Assembly (NCBI RefSeq): GCF_000406145.1 | Contig: NZ_CM001976.1 | Span: forward strand, 1,765,117-1,797,116 | Direction: 5' to 3' | DNA length: 32,000 nucleotides | Source of the DNA: Dickeya dadantii NCPPB 898 | GTDB taxonomy: Bacteria > Pseudomonadota > Gammaproteobacteria > Enterobacterales > Enterobacteriaceae | Notes under the pieces: model-generated | Seen by the model: only the letters and a program-made list of their open reading frames with translations | What the model was told of the DNA's origin: nothing | Databases searched by the model: none | Position numbers and translations under genes: made by a program | In this document: in pieces, positions 23,658 through 31,920 of the stretch | Position numbering within the stretch: the first letter of the stretch is position 1 | Layout: each line of letters opens with the position of its first letter

Positions 23658-23671
23658 AATTTATTGTGTGG
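23658..23671. repeat. Copy 2 of the 14-bp direct repeat AATTTATTGTGTGG, spanning the GTG start of the M28 gene
   Basis: Exact match to 23547-23560. It contains GTG 23666-23668. Confidence 0.8.
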
Positions 23672-25972
23672 AAAAGAAGTGGCTGTACACAAGCGACAAT
23701 TATACAACGATTCAGTCAGGTTGGTTTTTTAATCGTATTGCCTATGGTGGTATTATTAACACTATGGCAGGCAAAACCACCTGAGCCTAAATTAGCTAAC
23801 GCACCTGCGAACGTTTTTTCTGCAGAACGAGCACTAGCTATAATAAAAGATATCGCCAGGGAACCACGCCCAACAGGTTCGAAAGAAAATGAGCGAGTAC
23901 GGCAATATCTTATTACCAGACTAAAAAGTATGGGGCTGACACCAGAAACACAATCGGGTATTGCCTATTCCGATGGTGCTTTCACCAGTGTCGCTGTAGT
24001 AACAAATGTGGTCGTGCGTCTAAAAGGAACGGTTAGTCATAAAGCGGTACTTCTGATGGCGCATTATGACTCTGTTGAAACGGGGCCTGGAGCGAGTGAT
24101 GATGGTGCCGGAGTGGCGACAGAATTGGAAACGCTGCGGGCATTAATGCAGGGACCTGCGTTAAAAAATGACGTTATCTTTCTTTTTACTGATGGGGAAG
24201 AACCTGGCAGTCTCGGTGCTCAGCTTTTCTGGCATCATCATCTCTGGCGCGATGATGTTGGTGTTGTATTAAACTTCGAGGCTCGTGGAGCGAGTGGTGC
24301 TTCGCTAATGTTTCAAACTAGCGAACAAAATGGATGGCTTATAAAACAATTCGCCCAGGCTGGTCTTCATCCGGTCAGCAATTCGCTGATGGGGGATCTA
24401 TATCGCTATATGCCAAATGGCACAGATCTTTCTGTCTCGAATGAGAAAAAAGTGTCAGGAATGAACTTTGCCTTTGGGGGAAACTGGCCGATTTATCACA
24501 CTAGCAGGGATCGTGTTGAAAATATTGATCTGTCTTCTCTGCAACATCATGGTGATAATGCGCTTAATTTAAGTAGTAAATTAGGTAACACAGACCTTTC
24601 GCAAACGAAAGATACGGATGCTTCATATTTTAATGCATTCGGATTGTTGATCCATTATCCACAATCTTGGGTGAAATGGATTACGAGTGGTATAATATTA
24701 CTAGCCGTCATTTTATTAATTCGCGGTGTAGAGCAACATCGTTTGTCTCTAAAAAAGATAGTACAGGCGACATTTATCCAGCTATGCGGAATCATTATTA
24801 TCCCAGCTCTAGTCCTTGGTCTTTGGTTGGTAATTGAGGCGTTATGGGCAGGGAAAATGTATGCCCCCATGGGAGGGCTGTATGATAATCTACTATATGA
24901 GGGTGGATTCGTCACTCTGACGGTTGCGCTGACAGTTGTGATGCTAGGGCGTGGTCAACAGCGCTTTGGTCTACTTAATATGTTGAGTGGTGGCCTGCTT
25001 ATTTGGTCTCTGCTTATTTTGTGTGTGGCATATTTACTCCCCGGTGGGAGCGATTTCTTTAGCTGGTCGTTACTGTCCAGCTTACTCGTATTTGGTTGTG
25101 CCCTGAACAGTAGGCAACCACAAACTGTACTTAGCCACCCGGTATCAATGCTGGTTGTGACATTACCAGTCGTTTTTTTTCTGACTTCAATTCTCAACCT
25201 ATTTTTTATTTTTCTCTCTGCAACGATTAATGCCTGTGCGATGGCTCTGGTCGTATTAGCTTTGCAATTGCTGCTGGCCCCATTATCTGTGTTGATGGCC
25301 CCCCGATTTTGGCTGTTGCCTGGGATTGCCATGCTGATAACCGTTATATTATTTAGTTGTGCTTTTTTCCGAGGACAGCCAGATAGCGACAGACCAAAAG
25401 GGAATAATATCTCTTATTACTTGAATGCTGACACAGGGGAGGCGAAATGGGTCAGTTGGAGCGAGGTTACAGATGAATATCTTGAACAGTTTCTGCCACA
25501 TCCGCAAAGAGATATGGCTACTCAGGTATTGCCCTTTGCTTTTGCAGATAAAAAGCTACTAACGGGGAATGCAACGGCTGTGCCTTTATCCGCAGCAGAA
25601 GTGCAGCTCGATAACCAACAGGTTGATGCTGACGGTATACGTAAGATCCGCGTGGTTGTGACGTCAAAACGTAAACTCAGCAGATATCTGCTCCAGATTA
25701 ATAATCCCAATATTGACCATATAACTTTAAATGGTTTCATTTTAGAAAATAATAGTCACGTCAATCCATGGTGCATTGAGTATCTCGCACCAGGAGAGTA
25801 CCCATTGGTAATATCTCTTGGTTCAATGAGGAAAACAAAATTGATCGTATCTGAAGTGATCGATGGTTTACCTGTCATCCCGAGCAAAATGTATATGCCA
25901 AGAACAGAATTATTTATTCCTCAGCGATTCTTTGATCACTCAACAATAGTGAGCAAAACATTCGAATTTTAA
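23666..25972 (+). CDS. Polytopic membrane M28-family zinc (amino)peptidase with ERMP1/Fxna-like architecture
   Basis: N-terminal anchor helix (VGFLIVLPMVVLLTLW). M28 ligand motif series: HYD (24062-24070), DDGAG, TDGEEPG, NFEARG, YHTSRD. About 8-9 hydrophobic helices follow (aa ~330-570), then a ~190-aa C-terminal soluble domain. GTG start with AAGG ~9 nt upstream. Confidence 0.8.
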   Translation: MWKRSGCTQATIIQRFSQVGFLIVLPMVVLLTLWQAKPPEPKLANAPANVFSAERALAIIKDIAREPRPTGSKENERVRQYLITRLKSMGLTPETQSGIAYSDGAFTSVAVVTNVVVRLKGTVSHKAVLLMAHYDSVETGPGASDDGAGVATELETLRALMQGPALKNDVIFLFTDGEEPGSLGAQLFWHHHLWRDDVGVVLNFEARGASGASLMFQTSEQNGWLIKQFAQAGLHPVSNSLMGDLYRYMPNGTDLSVSNEKKVSGMNFAFGGNWPIYHTSRDRVENIDLSSLQHHGDNALNLSSKLGNTDLSQTKDTDASYFNAFGLLIHYPQSWVKWITSGIILLAVILLIRGVEQHRLSLKKIVQATFIQLCGIIIIPALVLGLWLVIEALWAGKMYAPMGGLYDNLLYEGGFVTLTVALTVVMLGRGQQRFGLLNMLSGGLLIWSLLILCVAYLLPGGSDFFSWSLLSSLLVFGCALNSRQPQTVLSHPVSMLVVTLPVVFFLTSILNLFFIFLSATINACAMALVVLALQLLLAPLSVLMAPRFWLLPGIAMLITVILFSCAFFRGQPDSDRPKGNNISYYLNADTGEAKWVSWSEVTDEYLEQFLPHPQRDMATQVLPFAFADKKLLTGNATAVPLSAAEVQLDNQQVDADGIRKIRVVVTSKRKLSRYLLQINNPNIDHITLNGFILENNSHVNPWCIEYLAPGEYPLVISLGSMRKTKLIVSEVIDGLPVIPSKMYMPRTELFIPQRFFDHSTIVSKTFEF

Positions 25973-26023: not shown

Positions 26024-26983
26024 ATGCTGGAAAAACTGCATGCATTAAAGCATCTAATTGGGAATACTCCATTAGTACCATTGAAACATGATAAGATTAA
26101 TCTTTTTACCAAGTTAGAATATCAAAATCTATCTGGAAGCGTGAAAATTAGACCTGCATTTTACATTCTGGATGCAGCAATTAGTCGTGGAAATATCCGC
26201 CCTAACTCTTCCATAATAGAATCATCTTCTGGGAATTTTGCTATTGCACTGGGAACATTATGCAAGCAACTAGGCATTACCTTTATTCCGGTTATCGATC
26301 CTAACATTAATTCTATTTATGAAAATGTACTGTTTTCTTTAACAAACCGAGTGGAAAAGGTGAAAGAGCGTGACGAAACAAAAGGATTCTTACTTACCCG
26401 GTTACGTCGGGTAAGAGAACTAATGGAAGGAACAACGAATGCATTCTGGACTGATCAATATGGTAATCCAGATGCTGTCGATGGCCATTACTATGGACTG
26501 GGTGATGAAATAGCAAGAAGCTTTGATGAGCTGGATTATATTTTTATCGGTGCTGGTTCATGCGGAACACTGGCTGGTGTGTCTAAGCGTCTAAAGGAAA
26601 AGTTTCCAGATATTACGGTTGTTGCCGTTGATACGGTAGGATCTGTTATTTTTGGCGATGAGCCACGTAAGAGATTTATTCCAGGAATTGGTTCCAGTAT
26701 TGTTCCACCAAATCTAAAGAAAGCAAAGGTTGATAAAGTTATGCATGTGTCCGAGTTGGATGCAATTAATGGCTGCCATCAGATACTGGAAAAACATGCT
26801 CTCTTTACAGGAGGGTCGTCTGGTAGTGTATATATGGCAATCCAGACCTATTTCCAAGATAAAAAGTTTAGTAAAAAACCAAATGTTATTTTTATCTGTG
26901 CAGATAATGGTATCCCATATGTGAACACCATTTATAATAAAGAGTGGGTGAATATGTTTAGTGAGGAATGTATTAAAGCATAG
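26024..26983 (+). CDS. sbnA: SbnA-like PLP-dependent enzyme (cysteine-synthase fold; N-(2-amino-2-carboxyethyl)-L-glutamate synthase), first step of L-Dap synthesis
   Basis: GGAGG SD ~9 nt upstream. It aligns by eye along its length with S. aureus SbnA: LEYQNLSGSVKIRPA (PLP Lys codon 26144-26146) against LEYMNPGGSMKDRPA; ESSSGNFAIAL; GFLLTRLRRVRELMEGTTNAFWTDQYGNP; VDTVGSVIFGD; PGIGSS; FTGGSSGS. Confidence 0.85.
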   Translation: MLEKLHALKHLIGNTPLVPLKHDKINLFTKLEYQNLSGSVKIRPAFYILDAAISRGNIRPNSSIIESSSGNFAIALGTLCKQLGITFIPVIDPNINSIYENVLFSLTNRVEKVKERDETKGFLLTRLRRVRELMEGTTNAFWTDQYGNPDAVDGHYYGLGDEIARSFDELDYIFIGAGSCGTLAGVSKRLKEKFPDITVVAVDTVGSVIFGDEPRKRFIPGIGSSIVPPNLKKAKVDKVMHVSELDAINGCHQILEKHALFTGGSSGSVYMAIQTYFQDKKFSKKPNVIFICADNGIPYVNTIYNKEWVNMFSEECIKA

Positions 26984-27020: not shown

Positions 27021-27989
27021 ATGAGATATTTGAATACGGAAAGCATAAAAAAAATTGGTATTGACTGGTTGCAGACTGTTGAAACGATAAAGAATGCAGT
27101 TTTCACTTTATATCATAATGAAGTAGCACAACCAATCAAGCCCTATCTACGATATAGAAACCCGGAAAATCGTATTATTGCAATGCCTGCTTTTATCGGT
27201 GGGAATATCGATATGGCCGGGATTAAATGGATCGCCAGTTTCCCGAAAAATATCCTACATGGCATCCAGCGAGCGCATTCGGTCACGATATTAAATGAAT
27301 CTACAACCGGAAAGCCTCTGGCAGTACTGAACACCGCATTAGTTAGTGGTATTCGCACGGCATCGGTCACTGGATTGATGATCCAAGAATATGCTAAGCG
27401 ATTTCCACTGCATAATGTAACTGTGGGTATTATTGGTTTTGGTCCAATTGGACAATTACATTTGCAGATGATGAGCGAGTTACTAGGGGATAGTATCTCT
27501 CAGGTCCTGCTATACGATCTTTCTGGCGTTAAAAAAGAATTCATTCCTGAAACGATCAGGGAACGTGTCACAATAGTACAAAGCTGGGAAGAGGCGTACC
27601 ACCAGGCAGATATTTTTATTACCTGTACTGTCTCTGCCGGAGGATATATTGATAAAAGACCTAAAGATCGCTCATTGCTACTTAATGTTTCCTTACGTGA
27701 TTTTAAACCGCAGATACTAGATTATACCTCATCGATTATTGTTGATGATTGGGATGAGGTATGTCGGGAAAATACGGATATCGAGTTGATGCATCTGCAG
27801 CGCGGTTTACAAAAAAGTGATACTCAATCGATTACCGAGATCGTCTGCGAAAACAAAATGCATACCTTCCCACCAAACTCGCCGATAATATTCAACCCAA
27901 TGGGAATGGCGATATTTGATGTGGCGATTTCGACTTATTATTACCGAAGAGCAGTGCAAGATGGAGTTGGCGTTGATCTGGATGACTAG
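27021..27989 (+). CDS. sbnB: SbnB-like NAD-dependent dehydrogenase (ornithine cyclodeaminase/mu-crystallin family), second step of L-Dap synthesis
   Basis: GGAGAG SD. QPIKPYLRYRNPENRIIAMPAFIGG..GIKWIASFP matches SbnB QPLKPYLR...RIIAMPSHIGG..GIKWIGS. Also a Rossmann motif IGFGPIG, ITCTVS, and NPMGMAIFD (SbnB: NPMGMAIED). Confidence 0.85.
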   Translation: MRYLNTESIKKIGIDWLQTVETIKNAVFTLYHNEVAQPIKPYLRYRNPENRIIAMPAFIGGNIDMAGIKWIASFPKNILHGIQRAHSVTILNESTTGKPLAVLNTALVSGIRTASVTGLMIQEYAKRFPLHNVTVGIIGFGPIGQLHLQMMSELLGDSISQVLLYDLSGVKKEFIPETIRERVTIVQSWEEAYHQADIFITCTVSAGGYIDKRPKDRSLLLNVSLRDFKPQILDYTSSIIVDDWDEVCRENTDIELMHLQRGLQKSDTQSITEIVCENKMHTFPPNSPIIFNPMGMAIFDVAISTYYYRRAVQDGVGVDLDD

Positions 27990-28217
27990 CTGTATCCAAC
28001 GTGATACGGATGCATAGAAAAGTCCACGCGAAAGCGCTGAGGAATCCCCAGTAATGGGTGGGTAAAAAAAGACAGGCATAGAGTTATGTGATCTACTGAT
28101 TGTTCCACCAATTCAATAAGGTCACCTCTATGCCTGCCCGACAAGTGAAGTGGTTTACTGAATTTGGCCACCTGAACAGAGGTGATATGCTCACCTCAGA
28201 ACAACACATGTACACCA

Positions 28218-28519
<302 letters not shown>

Positions 28520-28520
<1 letters not shown>

Positions 28521-28690
28521 TCGCGAAACTTAGGGCGCGTTATCCTGCGGCCTCTCTCTGCCACGTGTTCGGGGTTCATCGTAGCAGCTACAAATACTGG
28601 CAAAACTGGATTGAGAAACCATTGAGACGGCATACTGGTGCGGGCGTGACACTTTTTCGTGAAAGTGTCAGACTCGATTTTTATGCAATG
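28520..28690 (+). pseudogene. 5' remnant of IS911-type orfB (transposase catalytic part deleted)
   Basis: The -1 frame reads [34 protein letters not shown]..., then degenerates and stops (..SEMAF*) with no DDE region. Confidence 0.6.
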
Positions 28691-28885
28691 TATCGAAAAG
28701 GATATTCTGAAATGGCTTTCTGAAAGAATTCTGAAATGCAAAGGGCTGCATACGCAACCCCTTGATAAATTTGGCTCCTCTGACTGGGATCGCCTTTGCC
28801 AGTAAATGGCTAATAAGTAAGCTAAGCCGGAAGTCTCTTCCTGTCAAGACCACCAAAATGACCACCGTTTTATGAGAAGAGCGAG

Positions 28886-28917
28886 AAGTATAAGTGAGGA
28901 TATCCTCACTTATACTT
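28886..28917. repeat. Perfect 32-bp palindrome AAGTATAAGTGAGGAT/ATCCTCACTTATACTT
   Basis: The two arms (28886-28901 and 28902-28917) are exact reverse complements. It is followed by TTGGG and lies in DNA with no credible coding sequence. Confidence 0.9.
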
Positions 28918-29113
28918 TTGGGTGCTGAAATTATGATTGAACGGTCTTTCAGAACAAACATTATCATGATTTGAGCGTTACATACGTATAGAGGGCATGA
29001 TAGGCATGTATGTGTTGTAACCAACTAATCTGTATGAGATATTGAATTTACACATTTTTGAGTGAGGTTTTCACTCCGCTGTGTTGATACAGCGTATATA
29101 TAGCAGATACGAA

Positions 29114-29365
29114 ATGGCTAAAAAAATCATTAGTATACTGAGTTTGTTAGGGTGTATCACTGCTTTTGTCTCAGCTTGGTTTACCAATAATACAACATGG
29201 TATTTTACAGCATTAGGTTTACTTTTAACCTTTATAGGTACTTTTGTCGTGGGTAAGGCGCCTTCTGGACACGTTGTTAAACAGAAAGGTGGCGCTTTTT
29301 CAAAAAATAATCAAAATGTATACTTTGGGAACGTTAATACAGGCAAGGATGACAAAAATGAGTGA
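29114..29365 (+). CDS. Small two-TM membrane protein with a C-terminal QKGG-motif tail; candidate membrane effector of the downstream ATPase system
   Basis: MAKK, then two ~19-aa hydrophobic helices (IISILSLLGCITAFVSAWF and WYFTALGLLLTFIGTFVVG), then a polar tail VKQKGGAFSKNNQNVYFGNVNTGKDDKNE. The stop overlaps the next start (ATGAGTGA). The SD is weak, so ATG 29114 was chosen over GTG 29081. Confidence 0.6.
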   Translation: MAKKIISILSLLGCITAFVSAWFTNNTTWYFTALGLLLTFIGTFVVGKAPSGHVVKQKGGAFSKNNQNVYFGNVNTGKDDKNE

Positions 29366-29948
29366 GATCTCTCAGAAAGGAGGTTTTGGTTCCCATAATA
29401 CTCAGATTGTGATTCAAGATTCAATTGTAGATGTTGTACGTTCCCCTTCTATATTTATGCAATTGGTTTCAATATTATCCGGCACACCAAGAAAAGATGT
29501 GCCATCTGATAATTACCAATCTTATGATATTGAGAGAAAAATAGAATTCAATGACATAATTAAACATAGAGAAAAAATAGAATATTATTACGCCTACGTA
29601 TCCATGATAGAAACGGCATATACGACGCTAAATGAATCTAGAGCATCGGCTAGAGAAACATCACTTGAATATATAAATTCTAAATACAAAGATTGTGTTG
29701 GTGATATTCTTCTTAAAAACAAAGAGCTTGTAAAAGGGAAGAAAAGAGAGGAAGTCGAGGAAATTAGAAGGGTTATAATAAAGGAGAATTCTGATGAGAT
29801 AATTGATTGTGTTATAGAGCACATAAACAAAACGTGTGCAAAGTCTATCTCATCAATTAATTGTAGTATTGAAGAAATAGCAATACATTCTGAGTTGATT
29901 GTTTTCCATGCGTTTGTTGAATGCAAAGTGTTGGAAAAACCATTATGA
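29358..29948 (+). CDS. Helical protein of unknown function, resembling the C-terminal adaptor domain of ABC-3C/Lamassu effector subunits but with no enzymatic domain
   Basis: AAGGA lies 8 nt before ATG 29358 (alternative start ATG 29349). The N-terminus SQKGGFGSHNTQIVIQ repeats the tail motif of the upstream ORF. The remainder is predicted helical, K/E-rich, and ends IHSELIVFHAFVECKVLEKPL. The stop overlaps the next start (ATGA at 29945-29948). Confidence 0.65.
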   Translation: MSEISQKGGFGSHNTQIVIQDSIVDVVRSPSIFMQLVSILSGTPRKDVPSDNYQSYDIERKIEFNDIIKHREKIEYYYAYVSMIETAYTTLNESRASARETSLEYINSKYKDCVGDILLKNKELVKGKKREEVEEIRRVIIKENSDEIIDCVIEHINKTCAKSISSINCSIEEIAIHSELIVFHAFVECKVLEKPL

Positions 29949-30183
29949 TACTATCTGACAGCCTAAAACCCGATCAGACGATCTATTACTTGGGTGCTAA
30001 ATTACTGCATTGTATTAAAAATGAACCATCAATGGTAATTGATAGCATATATCTTTTTGACAAATTTAAAAAATCCGCGAACAAAAAATCACATTTTCTC
30101 AGTATATGTACACATTAGATTGGCTTTATTTGTTGGATTTGGTTGATGTTAATAATCAAGGGGACATTATCATATGTTTTTAA
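29945..30183 (+). pseudogene. Small middle-component-like gene, interrupted as sequenced by a 1-nt frame offset (57 aa as read; ~79 aa if restored)
   Basis: The frame from ATG 29945 stops at TAG 30116-30118. The -1 frame is open from 30070 and reads ..ITFSQYMYTLDWLYLLDLVDVNNQGDIIICF*, ending at TAA 30181-30183, which overlaps the ATPase ATG (30174) by 10 nt. Two A6 runs (30068-30073 and 30083-88) are candidate indel sites. Confidence 0.55.
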
Positions 30184-31877
30184 AAAAACTGGAGGTTTAC
30201 TCTCAATCTCTTGGGATGATTAGAGATATTTCTTTTCATAATGGTGTGAACTTGATTCTGGATAGAAGTACAGTAAAGAAATCAGAAACAGGGAATAGCG
30301 TAGGTAAGACAACAGCTTTGAGAGCAATTGACTTTTGCTTGGGAGCTAAACAAGAGAACTTTTATATAGACCCTGAGTTTAAAACCGAAGATTCAGCGAT
30401 AAAGAGTTTCTTGATTGATAATGAAGTTGTCTTCACGATTATATTAAATACGACTAGTAATCGTGAATTGATTATTAGTCGAATAATTAGCGCTAACTCA
30501 AAAATTCACGCCACTATAAATGGTACGGTTTTCACCAATCTGTCGTCACTCCATGAAGCTTTAAAACTCAATCTATTTTTGAGTTCTTCGCTGAAGCCGA
30601 CATTCAGACAAATCATGTCTCGTTTCGTTAGAAACTCAACTGAAAAGATGTCTAATGCATTAAAAACATTACAAATGGCGTCTTTGGCTGATTATGAAAC
30701 ACTTAATCTTTTCCTATTCGGTTTTGACAATGCTAATATTCTTAGTGAAAAGCAAAAAATAGGGAAAGAACTAAAAAAAATTGAAAAAGAATTTGATGTC
30801 ATTCTGAAAATAAGATCTAAAAATTCTATAGAACAATCATTATCTGTCATTGAAAGGGAAATTAAAGAGAAAGAAAAAGATATCGCCAATTACAATTTAG
30901 GTGAGTCTTATTCTGCGCAGATGAATGAAATTAACGCTATAAAATTAAAAGTATCTCAACTATCATTAGATCTGTCTGTTCTTGAAATGAAAAGAAGTTT
31001 AAATGAAAAAGCAATAAAAGATCTTCTTGAACAGCAAGATAATACAGACCCTGACGAATTAAAAAAACTTTACGAAGAAGTTACTTTCAGAGTTGTTAGT
31101 ATAAGTAAAACCTTTGAAGAGGCACTTGATTTTCACAATAAGATGATAGTGAAGAAAGTTGAGTTTATTAATTCTCAAATGGAATCATTGATTACAAATA
31201 TTGATGAGGTAAAAAGAAGTTTAAATATATGGCTGGAGAAAGAGTCTAGTATCTTGAGGGAATTATCTCAGTTAGGATCATTAAGTGATCTTCAGATAAT
31301 ACAGAAAGATGTTAATAAGCTTTATGAAAACAAGGGAAGTTTTGAAAGCTCATTAAACCAAATATTGGATTATGAAGAAAAAATAGAAAAAGCTAGAGGA
31401 AAACTAAATGAAGTTGCTTCTGAGATTGATGTGAATCTCGAAAGATTTAACGAAAAACTATCTGTTTTCAATAAATATTTTTCTGCATATACAAAGGAAT
31501 TATATCATGAAGAATATATATTAAGTTATGATGAAAGCAAAGGAAACTATGTTTTTAAAGTTGAGCCATTAGGTGCAATTAAAAGTAAAGGCAATCAAGG
31601 TGAAGGTAAAAAGAAAGCTCAGGTTTCAGCACTTGACCTCGCTTATCTTTCAACACAAGAAGAAAATAATTCAAAAACATTAAGATTCATTGCGCATGAT
31701 GGAATTGAAGCCATACATTCCAACCAAATAAAAACATTATTTGACATTGCATCATCTATAAACGGCCAGTATATATTGTCTATATTAAAAGATAAACTGT
31801 CATCAGTAGACACTGATTTTATAGAGCAGCACACAGTTCTCGAATTAAGTGAAGATGATAAGTTTTTTAAAATATAA
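30174..31877 (+). CDS. Coiled-coil ABC/SMC-like ATPase (DUF2326-like; ABC-3C / LmuB-like)
   Basis: AAGGGGA SD ~9 nt upstream. N-terminal half-head with Walker A GNSVGKT (30291-30311). About 250 aa of K/E-rich heptad-like sequence (aa ~190-440). C-terminal half-head with a signature-like NQGEGKKKAQVSALDLAYL and Walker B LRFIAHD (31680-31700). Confidence 0.8.
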   Translation: MFLKKLEVYSQSLGMIRDISFHNGVNLILDRSTVKKSETGNSVGKTTALRAIDFCLGAKQENFYIDPEFKTEDSAIKSFLIDNEVVFTIILNTTSNRELIISRIISANSKIHATINGTVFTNLSSLHEALKLNLFLSSSLKPTFRQIMSRFVRNSTEKMSNALKTLQMASLADYETLNLFLFGFDNANILSEKQKIGKELKKIEKEFDVILKIRSKNSIEQSLSVIEREIKEKEKDIANYNLGESYSAQMNEINAIKLKVSQLSLDLSVLEMKRSLNEKAIKDLLEQQDNTDPDELKKLYEEVTFRVVSISKTFEEALDFHNKMIVKKVEFINSQMESLITNIDEVKRSLNIWLEKESSILRELSQLGSLSDLQIIQKDVNKLYENKGSFESSLNQILDYEEKIEKARGKLNEVASEIDVNLERFNEKLSVFNKYFSAYTKELYHEEYILSYDESKGNYVFKVEPLGAIKSKGNQGEGKKKAQVSALDLAYLSTQEENNSKTLRFIAHDGIEAIHSNQIKTLFDIASSINGQYILSILKDKLSSVDTDFIEQHTVLELSEDDKFFKI

Positions 31878-31886
31878 AATAATCAT

Positions 31887-31920
31887 AGGCTCTGAAAATA
31901 TGATCAGAGTCTATATTATT
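31887..31920 (+). terminator. Candidate rho-independent terminator after the ATPase gene
   Basis: AGGCTCTGA (31887-31895) pairs with TCAGAGTCT (31904-31912), with one G-U pair and an 8-nt loop. It is followed by ATATTATT. Confidence 0.45.

Follow-up and report, generated by a model that had tools for sequence, protein, structure and literature searches.

Introduction

Type II (short) Lamassu systems, treated in the literature as equal to the ABC-three-component (ABC-3C) systems, form an SMC-like anti-phage and anti-plasmid family reported in about 15% of prokaryotic genomes. In the solved Lamassu complexes, LmuA is held as an inactive monomer on an LmuB2-LmuC assembly; DNA ends are sensed, LmuA is freed, and its tetramerization via the C-terminal domain activates the N-terminal domain. 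HNH and SMEK are among the listed short-Lamassu effectors, and every Lamassu component has proved essential wherever tested. To our knowledge, all characterized members of the family carry an enzymatic effector covalently fused to a docking domain. Here, we describe a four-gene module of this kind in Dickeya dadantii NCPPB 898, located in a stretch of 32,000 nucleotides (RefSeq assembly GCF_000406145.1, contig NZ_CM001976.1, positions 1,765,117 to 1,797,116 of the forward strand; hereafter the window), in which the LmuA-equivalent lacks its enzymatic half and a separate small transmembrane (TM) protein, encoded by the first open reading frame (ORF1), appears to stand in for it.

Two descriptions from the literature frame this comparison. 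In the short-Lamassu 'clade O', which spans over 40 species with over 100 sequences, LmuA has 'seemingly lost the effector domain', with LmuB and LmuC intact (Haudiquet et al., 2025; PMC12663957). In the Bab/Agp (BASS11) pair of Escherichia coli antiphage defence, amyloid signalling to a membrane-targeting effector through a motif common to a C-terminus and an N-terminus has been shown experimentally. The searchable literature, which did not extend to the paper that introduced ABC-3C (Krishnan et al., 2020, NAR), yielded no TM effector or amyloid motif tied to Lamassu or ABC-3C; nor did an experimentally characterized membrane-effector variant turn up there, in line with the original prediction, which had been made from the letters of the window. 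Since type II Lamassu and ABC-3C are equated in the literature, the family assignment of the module is not new; what is new is a trans-acting membrane protein wired to a Lamassu/ABC-3C-type module via a short co-evolving motif.

Gene content and family assignment

The module comprises four tightly coupled plus-strand genes (Table 1), and all the overlaps described in the original prediction were found: 8 nt between ORF1 and ORF2 (ATGAGTGA), 4 nt between ORF2 and ORF3 (ATGA), and 10 nt between a frame-restored ORF3 and ORF4. The four-ORF unit does lie within the predicted extent of 29081-31920, the end of which is slightly generous, and for ORF1 a start at the ATG at 29114 is likelier than one at the GTG at 29081. 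The predicted AT-richness relative to the adjoining biosynthetic cluster is likewise evident, with a GC content of 0.314 (29081-31920) compared with 0.466 for the upstream non-ribosomal peptide synthetase/polyketide synthase (NRPS/PKS) cluster (1-26000).

Table 1. Positions of the module, its motifs, and the adjoining transposase remnant in the window, with motif pairs from four further loci
Feature	Position (nt)	Strand	Description
ORF1	29114-29365	+	83 aa, 2-TM protein
ORF2	29358-29948	+	196 aa, CTD10 protein
ORF3	29945-30183	+	MC6; 57-aa ORF at 29945-30118, then -1 frame to TAA at 30181-30183
ORF4	30174-31877	+	567 aa, DUF2326 SMC-like ABC ATPase
Motif copy 1, ORF1 C-tail	29282-29329	+	QKGGAFSKNNQNVYFG, residues 57-72
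Motif copy 2, ORF2 N-terminus	29373-29420	+	QKGGFGSHNTQIVIQD, residues 6-21
Frameshift site in ORF3	30083-30088	+	A6 run here, A7 in the 95%-identical Pectobacterium cassette L002 (direct DNA comparison)
Walker A of ORF4	30291-30314	+	GNSVGKTT, residues 40-47
Deviant Walker B of ORF4	31683-31703	+	RFIAHD-G, residues 504-510
IS3-family transposase orfA remnant	28218-28520	+	left edge of the AT-rich island, outside the system
Motif pair, L016 (Lentimicrobiaceae)			tail EQNIGKSGTGYQAGETININ; CTD10 N-terminus EQNIGKNGTGYQAERINIYN
Motif pair, L107			tail QKDGQNNQQVGGDINN; CTD10 N-terminus QNDGSHNQQAGRDIINN
Motif pair, L118			tail MNQSIKGTNNTQIG; CTD10 N-terminus MNQSIDGNNNTQIN
Motif pair, L104			tail DRSTYVEQANDITIN; CTD10 N-terminus DRSTNIGTAQTVHIN

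Profile searches assigned three of the four products to families in the order expected of an ABC-3C/Lamassu operon, as had been predicted from the sequence of effector, small middle protein, and ATPase: ORF2 matched Pfam CTD10 (PF20275; 3e-6, 28.2 bits), with Bacteroidota orthologues of the same architecture at 43-47 bits; the 57-aa 5' piece of ORF3 matched Pfam MC6 (PF20293) at 23 bits and its 25-aa 3' piece weakly, the intact 79-aa Pectobacterium orthologue reaching 58.8 bits; and ORF4 matched Pfam DUF2326 (7e-18), the PADLOC model PDC-M68B from end to end (2e-45), and the LmuB model over the N-terminal head only (1e-10). RefSeq names the E. coli orthologues of ORF2, ORF3, and ORF4 'ABC-three component system protein', 'ABC-three component system middle component 6', and 'DUF2326 domain-containing protein', respectively, and that of ORF1 'hypothetical protein', and ORF4 homologues carry the JGI label 'YydD (DUF2326 family)'. 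In PHROGs, ORF3 and ORF4 matched only families of unknown function and ORF1 and ORF2 none; ORF1 had no Pfam match either, and NCBIfam returned nothing meaningful for any of the four proteins.

The description of the last gene as a split-head ABC ATPase with a long coiled-coil insert is borne out by the AlphaFold 2 (AF2) model of ORF4, which has a mean predicted local distance difference test score (pLDDT) of 81.8 and in which the ABC head is divided by long helices spanning residues 187-444 (an insert of ~260 aa). In Foldseek searches with this model, the top match was Bacillus subtilis YydD (9a6c_A, 1e-23), followed by cryo-electron microscopy chains of Lamassu LmuB (9uxh_F at 2e-13, then 9ux7_A, 9hqu_A, and 9hqx, within a range of 2e-13 to 1e-11), which scored at or above the best SMC/Rad50 chains; RecN ranked 38th (3e-8). 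Within the PDB, this kinship is visible by fold alone, the ORF4 alignment profile giving 0 matches at E<=0.01 against PDB sequences, LmuB chains included. Within the ORF4 family, the Walker A motif is canonical, residues G40, N41, G44, K45, T47, and D509 are invariant, and the Walker B aspartate is followed by G, S, Q, or K and never by E across 19 homologues; the published Walker B consensus of short LmuB, hhhhD[Q/S/T/E], is also deviant. A CxxC zinc hook is absent from ORF4. ORF4 is proposed to be an LmuB/YydD-like sensor.

Of the layout in which an enzymatic N-terminal domain precedes a C-terminal docking domain, ORF2 retains the CTD10 part and lacks the enzymatic half. No enzymatic domain was detected in ORF1-ORF3 in profile searches, in agreement with the earlier view that the module has no visible nuclease, protease, hydrolase, or other enzymatic effector domain. 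The AF2 model of ORF2 (pLDDT 79) is all-alpha over residues 29-188 and shows a low-confidence beta-hairpin over residues 1-22, and its only meaningful match in the PDB, chain 9a6c_B of the YydD-YydB integrative model, is YydB (prob 1.0, E 0.022). All 47 ORF2 homologues collected are standalone proteins with no fused domain, 45 of them 176-208 aa long and one a 115-aa fragment. ORF2 is accordingly proposed to be the C-terminal docking half of an LmuA-type protein, free of any enzymatic N-terminal domain, and to act as an adaptor or nucleator. The small middle component expected between the effector-side gene and the ATPase gene of an LmuC/MC-type operon is present as well, though frameshifted in the window.

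ORF1 has two hydrophobic segments by hydropathy, at residues 5-23 (TM1) and 29-47 (TM2), and its positive N-terminus together with a lysine after TM2 predicts an N-in/C-in topology with a 36-residue cytoplasmic tail. An alignment of 12 sequences revealed a conserved FTxL...FxGT...K pattern and a conserved tail, Q.GG..S.N.Q. Among 1.84 billion proteins, the Enterobacterales family of ORF1 forms only 11 representative clusters, 10 of which are 76-89 aa long, and all nine clusters with a sequence read show the 2-TM layout and a Q.GG..FS.N.Q tail. The gene is kept directly upstream of the CTD10 gene in Pectobacterium, Yersinia, and E. coli.

A motif common to the membrane protein and the proposed adaptor

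Central to the argument is a Q/N/G-rich motif of ~16-20 aa that the TM protein carries in its cytoplasmic tail and the CTD10 protein, in the same register, at its N-terminus, where it occupies the position of HNH or SMEK in relatives. The two copies in the window are similar in register beyond expectation (shuffle p=0.0025); Q, GG, S, N, and Q are conserved family-wide in the ORF1 tail, and G9, S12, N14, and Q16 are almost invariant among the heads of 24 ORF2 homologues. Composition-preserving shuffles gave p<=0.026 at 16 of 20 loci. Moreover, tails and heads match within loci: the summed cognate tail-head score was 862, against 491±46 for permuted pairings, and with a single representative per clade (11 clades, <45% CTD identity) the cognate sum was still 442 against 250±30 permuted (p<1e-5), the cognate head coming first for seven of the 11 tails. 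This pairing makes it likely that ORF1 and ORF2 interact.

At the conserved motif residues, the same codon is used in both copies at 3/8 positions in the window, 3/8 in E. coli, and 5/10 in locus L014, and the similarity is therefore held at the protein level rather than by recent gene conversion. In a Myxococcus sp. (locus L017, 3108-3761), the CTD10 N-terminus carries the motif in tandem (QGIRGDHNQQ / QSIRGDNNQQAAGDVVN) and the TM protein a single copy, so that the number of motif repeats may be variable. A fusion of ORF1 and ORF2 by programmed frameshifting at the ATGAGTGA overlap was also considered and rejected: the junction is unconserved, and E. coli has a 2-nt gap there.

Effector sides of related loci

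The relatives of the module were surveyed with one genome per species, yielding 563 ATPase relatives, and the effector side was classed in the best 80 of these 563. An HNH::CTD10 fusion (~265-290 aa) accompanied by MC6 and the ATPase was found at 58 of these 80 closest loci, and a small TM protein (55-111 aa, 1-2 TM) with an HNH-free CTD10 protein (~180-217 aa), MC6, and the ATPase at 17. A metagenome scan with the CTD10 alignment recovered three classes, namely SMEK_N::CTD10 (140 + 120 bits), HNH::CTD10, and short CTD10 proteins preceded by a small ORF that is hydrophobic in most cases, and thereby further loci of the TM variant. A direct TM::CTD10 fusion was found at none of about 40 TM-variant loci. 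The ATPases of the TM variants fall into their own clades, apart from the HNH clade, which indicates an old, diversified lineage rather than sporadic decay. Taken with the motif link, the absence of HNH and SMEK from the TM variant strengthens the proposal, already present in the original prediction, that the 2-TM protein is the only plausible effector of the module; we infer that ORF1 is a trans-acting membrane effector.

Flags of '1 TM' raised by a crude hydropathy scan on proteins of ~270 aa were discarded, these proteins being HNH fusions. Several HNH::CTD10 relatives (L073, L084, L089, and L036) are split or truncated, with halves in different frames or a missing N-terminus, and effector-gene pseudogenization is therefore not rare in the family.

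Distribution and mobile contexts

The four genes recur as a set on a Pectobacterium integrative island, where the cassette adjoins ArdC/CcdAB directly; in a P2-like prophage of Yersinia enterocolitica, between the portal gene gpQ and the replication gene gpA; and in the early-right region of lambdoid prophages of E. coli, between replication genes and hokD/Q, the cassette being present, inside prophages, in 17 of 5426 complete E. coli genomes. The gpA-gpQ interval of P2 is the old/tin defence hotspot (Rousset et al.; PMC9122126). The four-gene arrangement including ORF1 extends to Chimaeribacter, Enterobacter, Bacteroidota, Myxococcus, and metagenomes. Beyond these four genes, the island, prophage, and viral-contig settings have nothing in common, and the cassette is therefore a self-contained unit; all three upstream ORFs are kept in four unrelated contexts and at the 17 of 80 related species loci, so that they are indeed conserved neighbours of the ATPase gene. 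In IMG/VR, a search with the CTD10 alignment found five viral contigs with the cassette, and a scan with the ATPase alone as query found nothing. None of 50,697 GenBank phages was hit by the ATPase in tblastn, so that the cassette is known from prophages and IMG/VR contigs but from no isolated phage that has been sequenced. These contexts (the P2 gpA-gpQ hotspot, lambdoid prophages, and islands) point to a possible role of the cassette in defence. The E. coli prophages with the cassette (L006-L010, 10719-11444 and 13544+) also carry genes for pertussis/Scabin-like ADP-ribosyltransferase toxins near the lysis module.

State of the Dickeya copy

Gene calls in the deposited genome break ORF3 into 57 + 25 aa at a homopolymer run (Table 1), and MC6 is unbroken in Pectobacterium, Yersinia, E. 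coli, and a 92%-identical metagenomic copy. With the MC6 gene broken and all Lamassu components essential when tested, the Dickeya copy is probably inactive, unless the A6 run is a homopolymer sequencing error. In the closest copy (locus L096, metagenome contig OJKH01000221.1, ~1990-2080), the ORF2 of which is 92% identical, MC6 is intact and the ATPase frame ends after ~27 residues, so that this near-identical cassette is inactivated by another lesion than that of the window.

Comparison with described systems

The closest described counterparts are the type II or short Lamassu systems (LmuA-LmuC-LmuB; DdmABC), with which the module has in common the order of an effector-side protein, a small middle component, and an SMC-like ABC ATPase, the LmuB-type fold, the deviant Walker B, a CTD-type docking domain, the middle-component family, and carriage on mobile elements and in hotspots. 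It differs from them in three respects: an LmuA-equivalent stripped of the enzymatic N-terminal domain, an additional fourth gene for a 1-2-TM protein, and a short common motif in the place of covalent fusion. The HNH::CTD10 and SMEK_N::CTD10 relatives belong to the same CTD10, MC6, and DUF2326-type ATPase families, most with an ATPase ~33-40% identical to that of the window; however, in the position of the ~20-aa motif of ORF2 they have a nuclease-type effector of ~85-150 aa, fused to the CTD10 part, they lack the upstream TM gene, and their ATPases form separate clades.

The CTD-only LmuA of clade O fits ORF2, whereas the paper in question mentions neither a TM gene nor a common motif (PMC12663957). 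Clade O may be the present family, in which case its 'missing' effector would be the upstream TM gene. As regards B. subtilis YydB-YydC-YydD, its YydD and YydB are the best structural matches of ORF4 and ORF2 (9a6c), but YydB, at 481 aa, possesses an additional N-terminal region, which we take to be a phosphoesterase-type domain and which ORF2 (196 aa) lacks. We know of no TM partner of this system. ORF4 also corresponds over its full length to the B component of the PADLOC phage-defence candidate PDC-M68, whereas ORF1-ORF3 match no PDC-M68 model.

A parallel outside the family is offered by amyloid-signalling pairs such as Bab/Agp, HET-S/NWD2, and the Bell/NLR BASS pairs, in which adjacent genes carry a motif at the C-terminus of the membrane protein and at the sensor-side N-terminus, the motif stands in place of the effector domain fused in 'all-in-one' relatives, and prophage hotspots are again the location. 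Here, in contrast, the sensor is an SMC-like ABC ATPase complex acting via a CTD10 adaptor rather than a STAND/NLR or TPR-GreAB-PIN protein, the proposed effector consists of a bare 1-2-TM hairpin in place of a Bell/HeLo helical domain, and the motif is shorter; a Bell/HeLo membrane-targeting domain paired with an oligomerizing STAND/NLR receptor is not seen in ORF1/ORF2. The analogy nevertheless hints at amyloid-like motif coupling, as do the Q/N/G-rich composition and the low-confidence beta-hairpin predicted for ORF2 residues 2-18.

Proposed mechanism and alternative explanations

With moderate confidence, the module is regarded as a member of the ABC-3C/short (type II) Lamassu family with a trans-acting membrane effector that would operate as follows, the resting complex and the release being modelled on the solved Lamassu complexes, and the motif clustering, pairing, and membrane assembly on sequence anatomy. 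At rest, an ORF4 dimer would hold the MC6 protein ORF3 and one copy of the CTD10 protein ORF2, thereby sequestering the latter; upon sensing of foreign DNA ends or replication intermediates, ORF2 would be freed and oligomerize via its C-terminal domain, as LmuA does; the oligomers would cluster four or more of the ~20-aa Q/N/G-rich, beta-prone motifs that they carry in place of an HNH/SMEK nuclease domain; these clustered motifs would pair with, and possibly template in an amyloid-like manner, the near-identical motif of the ORF1 cytoplasmic C-tail; and ORF1 would assemble in the inner membrane and permeabilize or depolarize it, aborting the infection. The stronger proposition that Lamassu-type SMC sensors signal by prion-like or amyloid templating, with oligomerized CTD10 nucleating the motif of the 1-2-TM protein so that many copies produce a membrane lesion, is put forward only tentatively; the pairing may instead be plain beta-augmentation or constitutive tethering.

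Several observations weigh against this reading. The motif is short, with a core of 13-20 aa, and a Bacteroidota clade (L025, L035, L043, and L065) retains only the skeleton Q...G..N.Q, its loci being individually non-significant (p 0.14-0.45). The N-terminal hairpin of the ORF2 model has a pLDDT <50, and the CTD10 score of ORF2, 28.2, barely exceeds the Pfam cut-off of 28.1. No known pore-forming or defence TM effector resembles ORF1 significantly, and its weak PADLOC match to PycTM (7e-4) may reflect TM composition bias. The MC6 gene of the Dickeya copy is broken. In one P4-hotspot screen, a related system, described as a 'Lamassu missing a known effector' and possibly of the present family, conferred no protection, and the searchable literature holds no experimental characterization of the TM variant.

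Among the alternatives, the best placed, though unlikely, is that ORF1 is a membrane anchor whose motif permanently holds the CTD10/MC6/ATPase complex at the inner membrane, for instance to meet incoming phage DNA; defence would then arise because the SMC-like complex binds or occludes DNA, or because an unlinked host factor provides it. The motif pairing indeed speaks for an interaction of ORF1 with ORF2 and not for toxicity of ORF1, and the ORF1 proteins are very small (55-89 aa, with 1 or 2 TM depending on the clade). Yet the motif sits where every sister lineage has a bona fide toxic effector (HNH or SMEK), known Lamassu systems all work via an effector released from the complex, and for mere tethering a TM::CTD10 fusion would suffice, of which the TM-variant loci provide no example.

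We consider it quite improbable that the similarity between ORF1 tail and ORF2 head is a scar of a tandem duplication that split a TM::CTD10 fusion and has been kept by gene conversion, with no signalling involved. Such an origin would accommodate the arrangement of the copies as direct repeats that share a codon register and are separated by 47-91 nt, and their high nucleotide identity in some loci (0.88 in L016), but it sits poorly with the different codons often found at the conserved residues in the window, E. coli, and L014, with the lack of any unsplit, ancestor-like TM::CTD10 fusion, and with the persistence of the similarity in lineages with ATPases ~35% identical while the motif itself diverges, a pattern of co-evolution and not of neutral decay.

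A slighter chance still is given to the locus being a degenerate, effector-less Lamassu remnant with ORF1 as an unrelated small ORF. The window copy, lying between insertion sequence (IS) remnants with a frameshifted MC6 gene, would suit this explanation, as would the effector loss published for a short-Lamassu clade (PMC12663957). For the family as a whole, however, it is disfavoured by the four genes, ORF1 included, keeping their order unbroken in metagenomes and in every other taxon listed above for the cassette (in E. coli, in 17 complete genomes), and by the translational coupling of ORF1 to ORF2 with a co-varying motif in both. Finally, a housekeeping RecN/RecF/SbcC-type repair ATPase with incidental neighbours is refuted despite the generic SMC/Rad50 head and coiled-coil fold of ORF4, since its model groups with YydD (1e-23) and LmuB (about 1e-12) ahead of RecN (3e-8), its spread over prophages and islands is patchy (17/5426 E. 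coli genomes), the module is AT-rich relative to adjoining DNA, and the ATPase gene is always linked to MC6 and CTD10.

Genomic surroundings

As the original prediction had it, the module begins just past an IS remnant: the orfA at its left edge matches Pfam HTH_Tnp_1 and NCBIfam transpos_IS3 (8.6e-15, spanning only positions 1-85 of 369), and the region 28182-29080 is an IS3-family (IS911-like) element cut down to orfA and degenerate orfB fragments. Right after the window end (locus L001, 11844-12954) comes another IS remnant (rve + HTH_Tnp_1, minus strand), so that the four-gene cassette is flanked on both sides by IS debris. Farther downstream (L001, 12947-17886) lie an ArdC-like antirestriction/metalloprotease gene, a CcdA/CcdB toxin-antitoxin pair, and a gene for an Rhs-repeat protein with an Endonuclea_NS_2 tip together with an Imm-NTF2 immunity gene, a neighbourhood that is typical conflict-system cargo of an integrative element. 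The IS remnants and the ArdC, CcdAB, and Rhs genes around the module thus place it in a mosaic, decaying island. Rfam and promoter/terminator scans of 27.9-32 kb gave nothing above background and no terminator-like site near 31920.

On the upstream side, the NRPS/PKS cluster ends in two plus-strand genes with equivalog-level matches to SbnA (26024-26983, 397 bits) and SbnB (27021-27989, 348 bits), preceded by an M28-family peptidase gene (23666-25972). SbnA and SbnB are the pair that synthesizes L-2,3-diaminopropionate, and the NRPS/PKS product therefore probably contains this residue.

Implications

The intact four-gene cassettes of about 2.8 kb in E. coli prophages, for example that of strain SA31-1 (NZ_CP076276.1, 1537415-1540201), make direct testing of the proposed wiring feasible in a standard host; Pectobacterium A5351 also has an intact cassette. 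Should the coupling prove amyloid-like, the module would represent the first SMC-family immune sensor coupled to amyloid signalling; the conversion of many effectors by one sensor would explain signal amplification; the published 'effector-less' short-Lamassu clade would gain a concrete, testable effector; and SMC-type DNA sensors would join fungal NLRs, mammalian RHIM proteins, and Bab/Agp, the single bacterial case, in using this signalling principle.

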